Virus record (IMG/VR): IMGVR_UViG_2529292882_000019
Direction: 5' to 3' (one strand)
DNA: 24,212 bases
Source: a virus
Lineage: Duplodnaviria > Heunggongvirae > Uroviricota > Caudoviricetes
The notes below the pieces were generated by a model, which was given only the letters and a program-made list of their open reading frames with translations, was not told the DNA's origin and searched no databases. Shown here piece after piece: positions 1,965 through 17,360 of the stretch. Position 1 is the stretch's first letter; each line of letters starts with the position of its first letter. The position numbers were made by a program, and so were the translations under genes.

Positions 1965-2641
1965 TTCCATTGCTCCCCAAATACAAAACCAATTTCAGCC
2001 AGTGCCTCGTCCATTTTTTCGATGAATTCTGGCACCATCTCGTCAAAACTCGCCATGTACTTTTCATCCCGCTCAACCACGACATAATGCAGGCCTTCAC
2101 GCTTCATACGCGGGTCATAGTTGGCAAAGTACCAGGCATCTTTTTGCGTCACCCACATGCTGTACTGCACCTGGGCTATGTAAGCCGACTTTATGGCCCC
2201 GAAACCACCGAGCCGGAACTTCATGAAATCCCGGGAGGTAAACGGGCATTTCAGTTCAAGGCCGTTACCGTCGTTGCATAAGCCATCGGGAGAGCAGGCG
2301 GTGCGCATAGTCTCGTCACGATAGATGATCGGGGATTCAGTAACATTCACGCCGGAAATGAACTCAAACAGGGCTCTGGCGTCGTTCTCGTACTGTTTTC
2401 CCCAGGCCAGTGCTTTAGCGTTAACTTCTGGGGTCACTCCGGTGCAGACCTCAGCCAGCAGGGTGTGGAAGTAGGACATTTTCATGTCAGGCCATTTCTT
2501 TCCTGAGCGGGGTTTTGCTATCACGTTGTGAACTTCTGAAGCTGTGATGACGCCGAGCCGTAATTTGTGCCACGCATCATCCCCTTGTTTAACAGTTCTC
2601 ACGTCGATTCCTGTACGTTGCAGGATAATGTCAGGAGTCAT
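1961..2641 (-). CDS. exo: Lambda exonuclease (Red-alpha), 226 aa
   Basis: Protein [15 protein letters not shown]...GFVFGEQWK is near-identical by recall to phage lambda Exo and has the same length. ATGA coupling to bet. Confidence 0.95.
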
Positions 2642-3417
2642 GCTGCCACCTTCTGCTCTGCGGCTTTCCGTTTCAGGAATCCAAGAGTTTTCACTGCTTC
2701 GGTCTGCGTCAGTTCTGATGATGCGCGAATGTCGCGGCGAAGTATCTGGGAACAGAGCGGCAATAAGTCGTCATCCCATGTTTTATCCAGGGCGATCAGC
2801 AGAGCGTTAATCTCCTGCATGGTTTCATCGTTAACCGGAGTGATGTCGCGTTCCGGCTGACTTTCTGATGCGGTATTTTCGACAATGCGCTCGGCTTCAT
2901 CCTTGTCATAGATACCAGCAAATCCGAAGGCCAGACGGGCACACTGAATCATGGCTTTATGCCGTAACATCCGTTTGGGGTGCGACTGCCACGGCCCCGT
3001 AACTTCTTTGCCTTCGCGGGTTTTGAATGGTTCGCGGCGGCACTCATCCATCCACTCGGTAACGCAGATCGGATGATTGCGGTCCTTGCGGTAAATCCGG
3101 CATGTACAGGATTCATTGTCCTGCTCAAAGTCCATACCATCAAACTGCTGGTTTTCATTGATGATGCGGGACCAGCCATCAACGCCCACCACCGGAACGA
3201 TACCATTCTGCTTATCAGGGAAGGCGTAAATCTCTTTCGTCCACGGATTAAGACCGTACTGGTTGGCGACGATCAGCAGCGCGATGAATTGCGCATCGCT
3301 GGCATTGCCTTTAAATGCTGTCTGGCGAAGAGTGGCGATCAGTTCCTGCGGGTCGACAGTATCCATGCCGACACGTTCAGCCAGCTTCCCGGCCAGCGTT
3401 GCGAGTGCTGTACTCAT
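2638..3417 (-). CDS. bet: Lambda Bet (Red-beta) single-strand annealing protein
   Basis: Protein [19 protein letters not shown]...AAEQKVAA matches lambda Bet along its full length by recall. Sits between gam and exo as in lambda. Confidence 0.95.
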
Positions 3418-3422
3418 TCGTT

Positions 3423-3722
3423 TTATACCTCTGAATCAATATCAACCTGGTGACGCGCAATGGTTTCAACCATGTACCGGATGTGCTCCGCCACGCGTTC
3501 CTGAAATTCAACATCGTCATCAAATGCGCGACTGATTGCCTGTTTGCTGGCACCGTGGCGTTGCAAATGGTCGATGCAGAGCGATTCAAACAGGTGCTGG
3601 GGCAGACCTTTTTCCAGGTCGTCCGCCAGTTCCGTTTCTTTTTCTTCGCGAACGATCTTCTGGTAGTGGCGTGACCATGCCAGCTCTTCAATGCGATCAA
3701 AAATCGGGCATGTGCTCATCAT
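3423..3722 (-). CDS. gam: Gam, RecBCD inhibitor (short GamS-like form)
   Basis: C-terminal two-thirds (WSRHYQ...[34 protein letters not shown]...HQVDIDSEV) matches lambda Gam by recall. Lies directly upstream of bet. Confidence 0.85.
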
Positions 3723-5730
3723 CTGTTACCCCAAAATTTTCAAGTTTGTTTGCGATCATCATTGCAATACCCGGAATTAATGGCGCTGAGGCTATACCTG
3801 CAGGATTCGCACATAAACCGTAAACCGCCGCAATCACCACTTGTCTTTTCCAGTCGAGTTTTTCTAATGATGAAGCTGCTGCTTCGCCAGTTTCATCACT
3901 GCAATCGCGATGCGGATCGCTGCCAGCATTCTCCTTGTGTGGATGTTCAGCGCCTTCCATTTTCTCCGGCTCATTTTCCCGAACTTCAACCTGATTCTCG
4001 TCATCGAATGTTTCCTGATATATTGCGTCGCCCATCACCGCACCACAGTCAGGGCAGTTATCCCCGCCAGACTGACCGCAGGCATTGCAAACTTTTTCTA
4101 CTTCCTGTTGCGCCACTGGTTCAGGCTGTTTCGTTTCTGGCTCGTTTTGTAACGCATTTGGGCTGTTTTGTTCCGCTTTCTGGTCGTTCTGTTCCGATTC
4201 TTGTTGGTTCTGGTTCACTGAATCGCGGGTTTCAATCCCCTTCACCCATTTCGGATCATTCGGGTCGCTAATCCCCTCAACAAATTCACCACGTGATGCA
4301 GCAAGCAACTTATCGGCATCGACAGGATTTTTTGATGGAATGTTTTTCCGGGCTTCATGGAGTTCTGCCCGCAGTTCTTGATATTTCGCATCAACAGAAT
4401 TTACCTGTGACTGAGCATCCAGCGGCTGCGTGTCCTGATGATGTTCAGTTGCGTCCGGTTCCATTGTTTCAGCCTCTCCCTGTTCATCTGCCGTTGTTCC
4501 AGATGGTTGCGGTTTTTCTTCATCATCCTGTTTTCCTTCTTCTGTTACACGCTGCGGCATCGGGGCAGAGGAACGACCGCAGGCAATATCCACGATTTCC
4601 GGATCAGGGTTGGCATGATCAGTTTCAGTCAGTACTTTGTTCAGATATTCAGTGACGTGCGCGGGGGTGACCTCGATCCCAATTGGTGCTTCTTTCACGG
4701 ACGCAACCACGATGGCGCGGGAATAATCCAGCCCGCCAGGCATGGTGATGAATTTGTCGCGGAAAACAGAAAAGGGCGGTTTATTTTCAGCGATAATTTC
4801 CTCAATGCGTTTAGCGTGTGCCGGATGAAGGTTATAGATGTCCACGTCCATTGAACGGGCAAGTACGCCAGTGGCTACATCGCGTGCCAGTGACGTCAGA
4901 TCGTGGACGAAACCTTCGCCGCGATCGGTGAGGTTCCCGCCGCCAGCATTAGCACCGGAAGCCGTGCGAGTGATGCGTGAAACACGATTCCCTTTTCGCC
5001 ATTCTTTTGTCAGAAGACCGCGATCAATGTGTTCGGTATCCAGCCAGGCTGAAATGAAATTCTTAAATTCATAGGGCTGATGTTTTTTCGTGATAGAGAA
5101 AACTGCCTTAATTGCATCAGTCAGGCGGAGCAGGGCGGCATTATCCAGAGTTGTCGGTTCTGCCATGCCGCGTATGGCCAACAGCAGATTCTGGACATAG
5201 CTGTTTTCCTGATCCATCTCAAGAGCAGTAATGTGTTCGCGTTGTTCACGGGTGGCATGATGCAGGTATTTCCGATCCCCGGCCGCATACGTAAAAATGT
5301 GCAGAAGACGCTGAGTGAACCGCAAAGTGGCTACAGAGACTTCACAATCCTGGCAATCCCCGTGGGCGTCTGCCTGCGCGTTTTCTTCCTGGCCTCCCGT
5401 CAGTTTTTCAGTTTCCTGAGCATTGTCCTGATAGTGAACGTCGTCTGGCGCTGCTCCCGGTTTTAGTTCCCAGGTCATGGAGTCTTTGCTGAGTTGATAG
5501 CGTTCACTCCAGGTAAAATCGATCTCACCTTCAGGGGGAAGGTCATTAACGACAGGAAAATTTGTGGCAACAGCTTTAAAATAGTTGCTCAGTTTTTTAC
5601 CTGACTTAACGATCAGGTAGTCCAGAGTGGCACAGGTCGATTCAAAATCGTCACTTGCCCACAGGACGACGTCAGGTTCACCGGATGATTTTTTCGCTTT
5701 CCGTAACAGGAAGAGTGGTTTTGTGCTCAT
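3697..5730 (-). CDS. Large early-operon protein of unknown function, 677 aa: globular N-terminal half, long acidic Q/E/D-rich low-complexity linker, CxxC...CxxC zinc ribbon, hydrophobic C-terminal tail
   Basis: Long uninterrupted minus-strand ORF with an upstream GAGG. Its 3' end overlaps the gam start by 26 nt. Occupies the kil/cIII position upstream of gam. No family recognised from sequence. Confidence 0.7.
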
Positions 5731-5828
5731 TGTTTTTTAACCTCAACTCAGATTAAAATTACTGCGAGTGATGAATAAATGTCCCAGGTTCTTCACTCAG
5801 GCCTGCACGTTGTGCAGGCTTTCTTTTT

Positions 5829-6104
5829 TCAGATTTCACCTTTTAATTTCATTGCAATCAGAGTTGCCAGAAATCCGGCTTTTTTTTCTGCGGGCAGATT
5901 CTTTCCGATGTGAACCAGACTCATTTTTGTGACACCTTCATCAAGTGTTTTTACGTTGCCTGATGGGCCGTCGATATCAACCACAGTGAATGGGGTTTCT
6001 TTATTTTCTGTTTTAATCACATAGCCAATACGCTTTCCTTCCAGATTAACCTCATGAACAATGTCATCGGTAGTTAAAACAGTGACTTCATAATTGGTAA
6101 TCAT
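5829..6104 (-). CDS. racC: Small early protein, 91 aa (RacC-like by position and size)
   Basis: AAGGAG lies 5 nt before the ATG. The run of 91/56/73-aa genes here matches the Rac racC-ydaE-kilR arrangement. Symbol assigned by synteny and size, not sequence recall. Confidence 0.55.
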   Translation of the reverse strand: MITNYEVTVLTTDDIVHEVNLEGKRIGYVIKTENKETPFTVVDIDGPSGNVKTLDEGVTKMSLVHIGKNLPAEKKAGFLATLIAMKLKGEI

Positions 6105-6177
6105 TTTTTCTCCTTAATTAAGGTTGAGCGAATCCCTGCCATTGCTGGCATAAATTCAGTTTCGCATAGTCAGTTAA

Positions 6178-6348
6178 TTAAAGTTCGTGTGCCATCTGGT
6201 CTTTTTCGGCACATATTTCACTACAATATTTTTTCATTTCCGTCGTTGGGATAACTCCATGCATGAAATGAAGTGGTCTTTTAATGCTTTTGCTTTCTTT
6301 AATTCCTTTATTGCAAAGGTGGTAAGCACATTTTATTTTCTTAGTCAT
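6178..6348 (-). CDS. ydaE: Small zinc-binding protein, 56 aa (YdaE-like); not in ORF track because it is under 60 aa
   Basis: Hand-translated: [56 protein letters not shown]. Cys pairs CxxxxC and CxxxC. ATGA overlap with the upstream kilR-like stop. Confidence 0.5.
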   Translation of the reverse strand: MTKKIKCAYHLCNKGIKESKSIKRPLHFMHGVIPTTEMKKYCSEICAEKDQMAHEL

Positions 6349-6569
6349 CACCATGACTCCGCCTTTACAGGTAAACCATCACGACCGAGGAAGACTTTAA
6401 TCATGCAGTCAGTAATGCATGTTTTTGTGGTCAGGTTACGAATATAAAGTTTTCGCTTTTTAATATTGTTTGCCGAGGCGATATATGTCCGGCCTTCATG
6501 AAGAACATAATCACCAGGAGTCACACACTGACGTGGTATTTCATCAGTTCCGAAGTGATGAGCAATCAT
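6348..6569 (-). CDS. kilR: KilR-like small protein, 73 aa from a GGAGA-supported ATG (ORF track gives a 77-aa form starting at 6581)
   Basis: The internal ATG at 6569 has GGAGA 6 nt upstream and gives the 73-aa size of Rac KilR. Position matches Rac early-region order. Confidence 0.5.
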
Positions 6570-6993
6570 AATTATCTCCATTTTTACAAATGAATTTTGT
6601 CGATGCGGTGCCTGGTGCCTCCAGGTGACGTTAACCAGTTAACAATTAACGCCGGATATTTCACCCATAACTCTGCTACGAAGGACAATAGCTTTTTAAC
6701 TGTTCCGCGTGCGCTTAGCCGCATTCACCGCATCACAAAATTCACTTTAAAAAGGGCGGACATCAGTCGAACTTCAAGAAAAAACTGATGCCGCCAAGAC
6801 TACACACAGCAGTGTTGTTATTCACAACCGGAGGCGCACTCCCACCATTTAAATTTAACAGGCAAGACCGACTCTTTATGGATATCGGAAATGCGCCTTC
6901 GTGTTGTGCCCGGTTTTATTTCACCACCTCCGGGCTTTGGTGGCCTCGGCTATACCCCTACAGCGAGAATATTGAATTAATCCAAATAATGGA

Positions 6994-7146
6994 TTAGCAA
7001 GTATTTCTGGCAAGCCAGCGACGTGCGCCCGTTTCAGTTTTGAATGTCTTGCTTTTGGTATAAGTCATGGCGGTGAACGTTCCATCCTGGTTGGGGAACA
7101 CGCCACACACCAGGGATTCGTTGTTGCCGAGGTCGATTTTTTGCAT
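6994..7146 (-). CDS. ydaF: YdaF-like small protein, 50 aa (hand-translated; not in ORF track)
   Basis: MQKIDLGNNESLVCGVFPNQDGTFTAMTYTKSKTFKTETGARRWLARNTC with GAGGTG RBS. Replaces the track ORF 7065..7256, which is in another frame. Confidence 0.55.
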   Translation of the reverse strand: MQKIDLGNNESLVCGVFPNQDGTFTAMTYTKSKTFKTETGARRWLARNTC

Positions 7147-7156
7147 TTTTCGCACC

Positions 7157-7291
7157 TCACATTTTGTTGTTGCGGATAGAGGCTTCTGCCTGCCAGAGAT
7201 CCCAGTCGTTGCTGCGTAGAGCCTGTACAGCCTGGCTGTAAGTGATACCGCAACAATCCATCAAATACTGAACTACTTCGTAATGCACCAT
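7157..7291 (-). CDS. ydaG: YdaG-like small protein, 44 aa (hand-translated)
   Basis: MVHYEVVQYLMDCCGITYSQAVQALRSNDWDLWQAEASIRNNKM with GGGAGAG RBS. Lies between the repressor gene and the ydaF-like gene as in Rac. Confidence 0.55.
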   Translation of the reverse strand: MVHYEVVQYLMDCCGITYSQAVQALRSNDWDLWQAEASIRNNKM

Positions 7292-7484
7292 TTTATCTCT
7301 CCCTTTAACGCCGGGTGGCGGAACTAAAACCTACAGCGCCGTGCTGTTCTTGATAGAAATATTAGTAACACGGATATTTTAAGTCAACAGTATGGCGTAT
7401 AATATTTTTGATTTGGTAACTATGTAAATGTTTTTTCAAGGGAAAAATATTAGTTATACAGCTGATTTGCAGAAGTTATGGCAC

Positions 7485-7518
7485 AAAAAAAACCGACTAA
7501 GACGTCGGTTTTTTTTGT
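7485..7518. terminator. Bidirectional rho-independent terminator downstream of the repressor gene
   Basis: Stem ACCGAC/GTCGGT with a 6-nt loop, flanked by an A8 run on one side and a T8 run on the other. Confidence 0.7.
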
Positions 7519-7542: not shown

Positions 7543-8004
7543 CTACTGGTTACGTTTCTTTAGTGCCAGCATGTTCTCGAAGGCTTCCTCGTAGAGCTTG
7601 TTTAGTCCACGTAGCTGGTTAAGGAGTTTGGCTTTTTCTGACGCAGGTAGAATCTCGAAGAGGTTAAGCAACTCTGCCTGTTCTTCATTGACCAGCCTCC
7701 ATCCTTTGCCTGAAAAGCTATCATCATAAGTATCTGATGATCTTACATAATTCATTAAGTCTTTAAGGTCTTCTCGAATGTCCTCTGGTTTTACCTTTAA
7801 CAGAGCCGCAAATTTTAGCGCAGCGTCGGTATTTACCGGTATCTTGCCGTTCAGATACTGGCTAACGGTGCCTTGAGATTCGAATCCCAACAACTCAGCC
7901 GCCAGCTCTTGAGTCAGCTTCAGCTCTTTTTTTCTTGCATTCCATGCGGCTTTTAAATTCTTGCTCGCTTCTGGAGTTGCAATCACTTCGCGTGTTTTTT
8001 TCAT
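7543..8004 (-). CDS. racR: Prophage repressor (CI functional analogue, RacR-like), 153 aa
   Basis: N-terminal XRE-type HTH (LTQELAAELLGFESQGTVSQYLNGK). Divergent from a Cro-like gene across a 100-bp AT-rich intergenic region. No obvious SD, compatible with a leaderless maintenance transcript. Confidence 0.75.
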   Translation of the reverse strand: MKKTREVIATPEASKNLKAAWNARKKELKLTQELAAELLGFESQGTVSQYLNGKIPVNTDAALKFAALLKVKPEDIREDLKDLMNYVRSSDTYDDSFSGKGWRLVNEEQAELLNLFEILPASEKAKLLNQLRGLNKLYEEAFENMLALKKRNQ

Positions 8005-14070: not shown

Positions 14071-14421
14071 TGCATAAAGGAAAAGCTACCGCAGGGCGAA
14101 CTCACCCACCGATAGCTCTTAACTGGTTGTTTGTAAAAGATAATACATAAATTGGGGCTGTGTAAAGAGGTAAGCATCGTCAGGGCAAGGGAGATGTGTT
14201 AGGCGATATTGGTAAAATTTTCGTTGAGGATAAAAACGGTTTGCGGGAAAAGGAGAGTTAAGTAGAATTGCTGCGGGTGCTTGAGGCTATCTGCCTCGGG
14301 CATGAACACCAACGGCAGATAGATAAAAGCCCCACCCGACTATAAATCGAAGTGAGGCCCCTATATGCTCGTCACATATAGATTGCCTCTTACTGACCGA
14401 AAGGTCAAGGAGAAGCAGGCT

Positions 14422-14577
14422 ATGAAGCAGCAAAAGGCGATGTTAATCGCCCTGATCGTCATCTGTTTAACCGTCATAGTGACGGCACTGGTAACGAGGA
14501 AAGACCTCTGCGAGGTACGAATCCGAACCGGCCAGACGGAGGTCGCTGTCTTCACAGCTTACGAACCTGAGGAGTAA
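14422..14577 (+). CDS. hokD: Hok/Gef-family type I toxin, 51 aa (HokD/RelF-like)
   Basis: MKQQKAMLIALIVICLTVIVTALVTRKDLCEVRIRTGQTEVAVFTAYEPEE: single TM helix plus conserved C-terminal periplasmic region of Hok toxins. Followed by a strong terminator. Confidence 0.8.
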   Translation: MKQQKAMLIALIVICLTVIVTALVTRKDLCEVRIRTGQTEVAVFTAYEPEE

Positions 14578-14646
14578 GAGACCTGGCGGGGGAGAAATCT
14601 CCCGCCACCTCTGATGTGTCAGGCATCCTCAATGCACCCACACTTA

Positions 14647-14675
14647 ACCCGCTTCGGCGGGTTTTTGTTTTTATT
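14647..14675 (+). terminator. Rho-independent terminator downstream of hok
   Basis: Stem ACCCGC/GCGGGT with TTCG loop, followed by TTTTTGTTTTTATTTT. Confidence 0.8.
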
Positions 14676-16817: not shown

Positions 16818-16893
<76 letters not shown>

Positions 16894-16896
16894 TAT

Positions 16897-16971
<75 letters not shown>

Positions 16972-17336
16972 GCATTTGAAACAAGCCTTATTGTATTGCG
17001 GCACTGGCGTATTTTTTATTACGTGGGAGCAGGTTGTTTTGAAAAAGCATTCTGTTCTCTGGCTATGATTTGAGGCCGGGTGTAGCCTCAGTGCTGATTT
17101 TTTTACGGCAGCAGAATGGTGCATTATCGGTGGAGATTTTGTATTTCCTGGCAGGGTCGGTGATGCATCATTCTGGTGTTGTAAATCGCACCATAGAGGC
17201 GCTCCTCAGTGCGAGGGTGGTTTAAAGAGTCGGTTTAGCGGGAAACCACAGTATCCATACAGCACGGAATACTTCGGGAGGCACCCGACGCCTCGGTTTA
17301 ATAACAATTAAAAAATTCATCCCTTGCATTGACCAA

Positions 17337-17360
17337 CCGCCATATCTGGCGGTTTTTTTT
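17337..17360 (+). terminator. Strong rho-independent terminator (tR'-like) in the late leader
   Basis: Stem CCGCCA/TGGCGG with TATC loop followed by T8. Confidence 0.75.

Follow-up and report, generated by a model that had tools for sequence, protein, structure and literature searches.

A hairpin and T-tract between racC and recE of a Rac-family prophage probably form the intrinsic terminator of a small antisense RNA related to Escherichia coli K-12 t29

Between two leftward genes of a lambdoid prophage lies a GC-rich hairpin whose T-tract follows it on the opposite strand, and we asked whether such an element ends an antisense RNA, blocks transcription that reads in from elsewhere, or serves neither purpose. 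The stretch of DNA analyzed here (the window, 24,212 nucleotides) is a Rac-family lambdoid prophage of E. coli, which in related genomes is inserted beside ttcA. Gene annotation agreed with the preliminary description: in the window orientation the whole series from intR to kilR is encoded on the minus strand, in the order intR, xisR, a DUF1187 gene, ralR, exo, bet, gam, the recE-like gene, the racC-like gene, ydaE and kilR. The racC stop codon (5829-5831) and the recE start codon (5728-5730) enclose a spacer of 98 bp, and the hairpin and its T-tract sit in this spacer. Directly upstream of the hairpin on the leftward transcript is the racC-like gene (5829..6104, minus strand, 91 aa), which RefSeq labels racC, phage protein or hypothetical protein and whose product matched no Pfam family above threshold. 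On the other side of the spacer lies the recE-like gene (3697..5730, minus strand, 677 aa; Pfam Exonuc_VIII, E = 4e-68), the product of which corresponds to residues 1-587 of K-12 RecE at 74% identity, without the C-terminal nuclease domain and with a last stretch of ~60 residues unrelated to RecE. By annotation and Pfam the recE-like gene is followed by those for Gam, Bet and Exo, and the small RNA discussed below is complementary to the recE-like 5' leader. We also noted that the recE-like gene overlaps the lambda-type gam gene (3423-3722, minus strand), that the module runs downstream to ~1900, and that a closely related prophage (H38/L216) carries bet and exo where recT would be; the recE-like/gam/bet/exo region is a mosaic recombination module.

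Re-reading the sequence bore out the hairpin and T-tract as they had been described, and the interval 5797-5830 contains all of their parts. On the plus strand the core stem pairs a 5' arm, GCCTGCAC (5801-5808), with a 3' arm, GTGCAGGC (5812-5819), across a GTT loop of 3 nt (5809-5811); all eight core pairs are perfect and six of them are G-C. A terminator scan adds two optional basal pairs, G5800·T5820 and A5799-T5821, which extend the stem to 10 pairs and the terminator hairpin, as defined by folding, covariation and the K-12 orthologue, to 5799..5821. The stem is preceded by TTCTTCACTC and adjoined by the non-coding T-tract TTTCTTTTTT (5820..5829, plus strand; nine of its ten bases are T), the last T of which is the first base of the racC stop complement (TCA, 5829-5831). 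A GC-rich, short-loop stem with a U-rich tract directly 3' of it, as expected of an intrinsic terminator, is present on the plus strand. In the minus-strand RNA the palindrome begins 9 nt past the racC stop codon; an A-run leads into the stem, CUGAGUGAAG follows it, and a U-tract is absent.

To what extent could such anatomy arise by chance? Folded in isolation, the hairpin had a predicted energy of -15.5 kcal/mol (z = -3.8) as plus-strand RNA and of -12.8 kcal/mol (z = -3.7) as minus-strand RNA. Loose terminator-like patterns were not enriched in the first 12 kb of the window (12 found versus 14.7 expected), and the hairpin at 5799-5821 was the top match among them. Under strict criteria, namely a perfect 8-bp stem with at least five G/C, a loop of 3-8 nt and at least eight T in the next ten positions, the window held two sites, while any match on either strand was seen in only one of 400 dinucleotide-preserving shuffles of the whole window. 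The terminator anatomy is far beyond chance.

The orthologous site of E. coli K-12 supplied evidence at the RNA level, all of which concerns the K-12 allele rather than the window allele. Adams et al. 2021 (eLife, PMC7815308) applied Term-seq to K-12 and mapped an RNA 3' end to position 1417486 of the plus strand, with the class "antisense" relative to racC. Its read counts are 185,664 in the LB OD 0.4 tab and 146,140 in a later one; racC is named three times in the 3'-end file of that study (supplementary file 1), which has three condition tabs, and is absent from the available portions of its three other supplementary files, which should include the Rho-termination table. In the LB OD 0.4 data this was the plus-strand non-tRNA 3' end with the highest read count across ~1.30-1.75 Mb, and no other plus-strand 3' end was found from the left edge of the prophage to the site (PMC7815308). 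The sequence listed around it is TCTTGCCGGATACACACTGTTCATAGCCTGCGCCATACGCAGGCTATTTCT followed by TTCAGATTTC; this column gives 50 nt upstream, the 3' end and 10 nt downstream, a layout that we checked on SgrS, for which position 51 is the last U of U8. The K-12 RNA ends ...CGCAGGCUAUUUCU, within the T-tract of the orthologous hairpin, and its final nucleotide (...GGCUAUUUCU) is the seventh after the stem GGC and lies 2 nt before the racC stop codon. We verified the coordinates against NC_000913.3 (recE ends ...1417386; racC, 1417488-1417763), in which RefSeq annotates no RNA gene between recE and racC.

A catalogued small RNA occupies the same K-12 spacer. The available part of the supplementary table of Romero et al. 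2014 (PMC4681348) lists, under "Previously identified sRNAs", a plus-strand sRNA named "t29" that is flanked by recE and racC in the orientation "<- -> <-" and spans U00096.2 1415447-1415590, with Raghavan et al. 2011 given as its verification. Boundaries in this part of the table are sometimes tens of nucleotides off, and the t29 3' boundary falls 80 nt beyond the Term-seq end. For conversion to U00096.3 we took the offset to be +1976, and the rydC 3' end, which appears in the available parts of both tables, gave 1976-1977. The converted t29 5' boundary, as tabulated there, is a G located 8 nt after an invariant TAAAAT hexamer, and the distance from this boundary to the Term-seq 3' end puts the K-12 RNA at ~64 nt. 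No entry at the locus coordinates was found in the available text of the Ettwiller 2016 Cappable-seq supplement, which is possibly incomplete, and the Shinhara 2011 supplement holds no entry for the locus.

The mapped 3' end within the T-tract and the catalogued t29 in the spacer support the first of two possibilities raised in the preliminary description from the sequence alone, namely that the hairpin terminates an antisense RNA, and the plus-strand transcript ending at this position on which that possibility hung does exist in K-12. We consider it very probable that a small antisense RNA is encoded in the racC-recE spacer and that the hairpin and T-tract are its intrinsic (Rho-independent) terminator.

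By equivalence with K-12, the window RNA would start at ~5766/5767 and its 3' end is predicted at ~5826-5829, giving a putative cis-antisense sRNA of ~60-64 nt (5767..5829, plus strand) that is an allele of K-12 t29 and whose ends are assigned by homology. This RNA would consist of stem-loop 1 (5767-5797) and the terminator hairpin, a two-stem-loop architecture common to both alleles, and is predicted to fold at -22.3 kcal/mol (z = -3.4) compared to -17.3 kcal/mol for its minus-strand counterpart. Over its whole length it would be complementary to the leftward mRNA in the racC-recE spacer, and its 5' end would stop 21 nt short of the recE SD. No Rfam family matched the hairpin or the RNA at gathering thresholds, the best match at permissive thresholds being OmrA-B with 21.3 bits against the 40 required, and no RefSeq gene covers the RNA. 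We also considered a small-protein mRNA and rejected it, as no short ORF is conserved across alleles: the K-12 allele has a 9-codon ATG ORF that lacks an SD, the ATG is missing in the AATAATC variants, and the ATG frame of the window allele (ORFs 5768/5779) runs into no stop ahead of the terminator.

Upstream of the predicted start we identified a candidate sigma-70 promoter (5730..5759, plus strand) with a -35 element TTGTTT at 5730-5735, an 18-bp spacer and a -10 element TAAAAT at 5754-5759. Its 8/12 consensus matches are modest, and it is identical in K-12. A search for an upstream plus-strand promoter had been suggested; it recovered this candidate, and no strong promoter was found farther upstream, none with at least 9/12 matches being present on the plus strand within 2088-7350 and weak -10-like sites occurring inside recE at 5514 and 5577. 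The candidate -35 element overlaps the complement of the recE start codon (5728-5730). The promoter block is unchanged in all 18 racC-anchored spacer sequences; it also served as the search pattern for a later set of loci, and its conservation in those loci is thus by construction. A further confounder is the opposite strand, which encodes the recE SD hairpin and could itself account for the conservation. In the minus-strand RNA the recE SD lies within a conserved 9-bp hairpin, UUUUAAUCU-GAGUUG-AGGUUAAAA (window 5736-5759), and structure modeling gave the SD in this local hairpin a predicted unpaired probability of ~0.25. The same DNA block carries the SD hairpin as well as the antisense -10 element and spacer, so that two sets of signals are interleaved.

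We assessed how widely the element is shared: of 5426 complete E. coli genomes, 1867 have a match to the 1 kb surrounding the site. Alignment of the spacer from seven genomes revealed two alleles, in which ~40 nt are rewritten between near-identical flanks formed by the racC 3' end and by the block from the recE ATG through TAAAAT. The window-type RNA reads AGGCCUGCAC-GUU-GUGCAGGCUU, then UCUUUUUU, and the K-12-type RNA reads AUAGCCUGCG-CCAUA-CGCAGGCUAU, then UUCUUU. Sequence and position identify the element as a diverged allele orthologous to t29, the candidate sRNA of K-12: both occupy the same position between orthologous racC and recE genes, share an identical TTGTTT-N18-TAAAAT upstream block of 30 nt, and have two stem-loops, a stem core of GCCTGC/GCAGGC and a T-rich tail beside the racC stop. 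In contrast to t29, most of stem-loop 1 and the linker are rewritten in the window RNA body, the top of the stem has A-U/C-G pairs with a GUU loop rather than G-C with a CCAUA loop, and the tail is longer (UUUCUUUUUU compared to UAUUUCUUU). The gene context also departs from that of K-12, the truncated recE of the window being followed by lambda Red genes.

For covariation we collected 216 copies from viral contigs, representative genomes and RefSeq, some contigs having been fetched twice, which reduced to 26 distinct sequences, and aligned 20 of these. Across the 20-sequence alignment an 11-pair helix was paired in 91.8% of cells, with five pairs invariant and four altered on both sides. None of 500 shuffles reached the observed pairing or covariation, shifting the 3' partner by 1-3 columns lowered pairing to only 17-43%, and RNAalifold independently returned the same helix as the sole consensus structure. 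The T-rich tail is kept in all alleles although it is non-coding. In the MAFFT alignment the two alleles are out of structural register at stem-loop 1, and a G-C to C-G swap beside a shared AGUG/CACU core of that stem-loop was seen by eye rather than counted by the tool. A search of racC relatives with one genome per species returned only Escherichia/Shigella loci and two metagenome bins with other labels, which carry a near-identical racC (93-95%), and yielded no more distant homologues for deeper covariation.

Because the palindrome folds on both strands, we used the asymmetry of G·U pairs to call the strand under selection. Five independent one-sided changes within stems leave a G·U pair on the plus strand and a C·A mismatch on the minus strand in every case (5/5); these comprise U·G at columns 44/52, once per allele, G·U at columns 45/51 and two G·U changes in the upstream stem-loop, a small sample for which a sign test gives about 0.03. 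The basal G5800·U5820 of the window is likewise paired on the plus strand only, and the changes that favor the minus strand are confined to the loop-closing position, as in GTT-ATGCAGGC. For 21 of the 26 distinct sequences the predicted RNA folded more stably from the plus strand than from the minus strand, and in one lineage with two one-sided changes the values were -22.9 kcal/mol for the plus strand versus -11.7 kcal/mol for the minus strand. These sequence comparisons support selection of the structure on the plus-strand RNA, in agreement with the retained non-coding T-tail.

The terminator loop, by comparison, is hypervariable while the stem is fixed, as observed at window 5809-5811 and at loci L001, L043, L051, L005/L117, L031, L034, L098 and L048. 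Window-type loops are GTT, GTC, ACT, AGT, ACA and TGA, and K-12-type loops are CCATA, TATGG, GCATA and TCATA. CCATA/TATGG and ACT/AGT are exact reverse complements, that is, the loop has been inverted across a perfect inverted repeat, which is a template-switch or cruciform signature; CP178302.1 contains two copies with opposite loop orientation (L012, AGT; L016, ACT). A further copy of the Rac spacer was found in PP818812.1, "Actinobacillus phage vB_Apl-pPE4" (H31), at 4974-5085, beside an exodeoxyribonuclease VIII gene and with 96.4% identity over all 111 nt; either the host label, which looks doubtful, is wrong or the phage is an E. coli-type prophage.

Given that a working terminator halts any polymerase that arrives, the hairpin could instead serve mainly to stop longer plus-strand antisense or read-in transcripts from recE or beyond, shielding racC-kilR and the plus-strand gene beyond. 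In that case the mapped K-12 3' end would come not from a dedicated sRNA but from such longer transcripts, produced for instance by RalA read-through or by spurious antisense promoters. Term-seq, which gives 3' ends only, would allow this; RalA is on the same strand ~4 kb upstream, and the weak -10-like sites at 5514 and 5577 inside recE could feed such transcripts. However, the K-12 catalogue contains a discrete short transcript with a 5' boundary ~64 nt upstream, the very high read count is hard to account for without a nearby promoter, and the region from 2088 to 7350 has no plus-strand promoter of at least 9/12 matches; for these reasons we regard shielding as a secondary role and consider it unlikely to be the principal one. 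Long untranslated antisense RNAs are, moreover, usually terminated first by Rho.

We also weighed whether the palindrome acts in the minus-strand early-left mRNA, as an intercistronic stabilizer, an RNase III site or an attenuator separating racC from recE, with the T-tract being incidental. The minus-strand fold (-12.8 kcal/mol, z = -3.7), which begins 9 nt past the racC stop codon, would allow for this, as would the K-12 allele, which folds about equally on both strands, and the loop-closing variant GTT-ATGCAGGC, which pairs on the minus strand only. Yet the minus-strand stem has no following U-tract, all five internal one-sided changes keep pairing on the plus strand only, the non-coding T-tail is conserved, and it is to the plus strand that the 3' end was mapped. 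In addition, racR silencing in K-12 co-induces racC, recE, recT, ralR, xisR and intR, and this co-induction of racC together with recE through intR upon derepression indicates that leftward transcription passes the hairpin and hence that minus-strand transcripts meet no strong stop there; leftward read-through is what is expected of a terminator that works in one direction only. We judge a role in the sense mRNA to be very unlikely. Still less probable is an element that operates solely in DNA, or a chance palindrome, such as a protein-binding repeat, a module recombination junction or a cruciform hotspot with no function in RNA. The spacer is indeed the junction of two diverged alleles with near-identical flanks, and the exact loop inversions (CCATA/TATGG, ACT/AGT) are a signature of DNA template switching, but loop inversions arise as a side effect wherever an inverted repeat is perfect, and they leave the conserved T-tract unexplained, while shuffling excluded chance, compensatory and G·U-type substitutions indicate pairing in RNA, and an RNA 3' end is mapped in K-12.

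How the antisense RNA ended by this terminator might act is suggested by known systems with a related layout. In phage lambda, the 77-nt cis-antisense RNA OOP, encoded by the prophage, is transcribed convergently with an early operon from a constitutive-type promoter of its own and stops at an intrinsic terminator; RNase III cuts the duplex that it forms with the mRNA. The window RNA resembles OOP in architecture, and by analogy we took OOP as the working model for its action; OOP, however, overlaps the 3' end of the cII coding sequence in the rightward operon, whereas the window RNA would cover only non-coding spacer in the leftward operon, and no sequence relationship between the two is evident. 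In P22, sar is an antisense RNA of ~69 nt from the arc-ant intercistronic spacer, convergent with the operon, and controls the downstream cistron. This is again an architectural analogy, an antisense RNA arising from a spacer inside a phage operon, but sar covers the ant ribosome-binding site, while the window RNA would stop 21 nt short of the recE SD and, in structure models, leaves its accessibility unaffected. RalA (Rfam RF02694) is encoded on the same strand of the same prophage and is likewise a prophage sRNA opposing a gene of the leftward operon; in contrast to the spacer RNA, which has no Rfam match and no toxin partner, it is 179 nt long, belongs to the type I antitoxins and has a curated Rfam model. 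A single palindromic hairpin between or inside convergent transcription units also recalls bidirectional intrinsic terminators (Ju et al. 2019), which need a hairpin flanked by an A-tract and a U-tract, one to each side, so that the RNA from either strand has a U-tail. We rejected a bidirectional terminator here, as the minus-strand RNA continues into CUGAGUGAAG without a U-tract.

Based on these comparisons, RNA polymerase would start on the plus strand ~8 nt after TAAAAT, the nascent RNA would fold stem-loop 1 and next the GC-rich terminator hairpin, and the polymerase would release the RNA in the U-run just ahead of the racC stop codon. In K-12 the RNA is abundant while the prophage is repressed. 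Given this abundance and its perfect complementarity to the spacer, the RNA would be expected to pair with any leftward racC-recE-gam-bet-exo-ralR-xis-int transcript that arrives here. Such pairing could lower expression beyond racC, either through RNase III cleavage directed by the duplex, as for OOP and cII, or through interference between convergent promoters, and the outcome would be that recombination and excision genes are kept quiet during prophage repression. That the RNA down-regulates recE and the genes downstream of it is a suggestion that we advance tentatively and as somewhat doubtful. When the antisense target was masked in structure models, recE SD accessibility was unchanged for both alleles (0.25 in both cases), and a structural switch of the recE ribosome-binding site by the antisense RNA was rejected on this ground. 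With the RNA ending 21 nt short of the SD and accessibility unchanged, neither occlusion of the ribosome-binding site nor a structural switch is supported, leaving RNase III cleavage and promoter interference as the two main options.

The recET genes are the basis of a widely used recombineering system and are silent in wild-type K-12, a silence classically relieved by sbcA mutations that map to this neighborhood. An ambitious reading of the locus, which we think improbable, is that the RNA is an allele-specific silencer of the Rac recombination and excision arm and forms part of the recET silence relieved by sbcA, with the alleles and loops acting as specificity determinants; the body alleles and the variable, sometimes inverted loop would then discriminate between co-resident prophages, in the manner of antisense-RNA incompatibility in plasmids. 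We note, as a lead only, that "sbcA" is recorded as a synonym of both racC and recE. Full-text literature searches for racC with sRNA or terminator retrieved no functional study, and Pas-sRNA, described in a preprint, was examined and set aside as unrelated to the spacer RNA.

The K-12 counterpart of this RNA was already present in candidate lists and Term-seq tables, and the feature is of a familiar kind. What the present analysis adds is the link between the motif and t29, the interleaving of a promoter with the recE start signals, and the recognition of two alleles with compensatory and strand-biased substitutions and a hypervariable, sometimes inverted loop. A bare motif is in this way tied to a real, abundant and unannotated RNA of the best-studied bacterium, which lies opposite the recE leader and is carried, in two diverged alleles, by about one in three complete E. 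coli genomes. Should it prove to control the genes for recombination and excision on the leftward transcript, Rac maintenance would gain an antisense layer of the OOP or sar type; if it exerts no such control, the site would be one more correctly placed intrinsic terminator, still useful for annotating prophage transcription units.

Several further features of the prophage and its relatives were recorded along the way. Outside the spacer, the only other window site within the strict terminator definition is 17335-17354 on the plus strand; another strong terminator-like hairpin lies at 14646-14663 (plus strand), and the sequence at 7491-7510 is terminator-like on both strands, just downstream of a repressor-like gene (7543-8004, minus strand), and may be a bidirectional terminator. 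The table of Adams et al. 2021 (PMC7815308) also contains two more strong minus-strand 3' ends in the Rac immunity region of K-12, an "orphan" at 1419679 and one at 1420148, internal to racR, the latter of which is consistent with the published Rho-dependent trac terminator inside that gene. Rfam matches above the gathering score in the window, all on the plus strand, were the RalA antitoxin sRNA (1557-1735), the sok antitoxin RNA (14275-14424), near which hokD is annotated in a related prophage, and two adjacent tRNA genes (16818-16968). The closest annotated relative, prophage L216, matches the window up to ~18371, and its segment 13416-18168 carries cargo past the replication module, including a paa adhesin, a scabin-related ADP-ribosyltransferase and the B subunit of a subtilase-family AB5 toxin.
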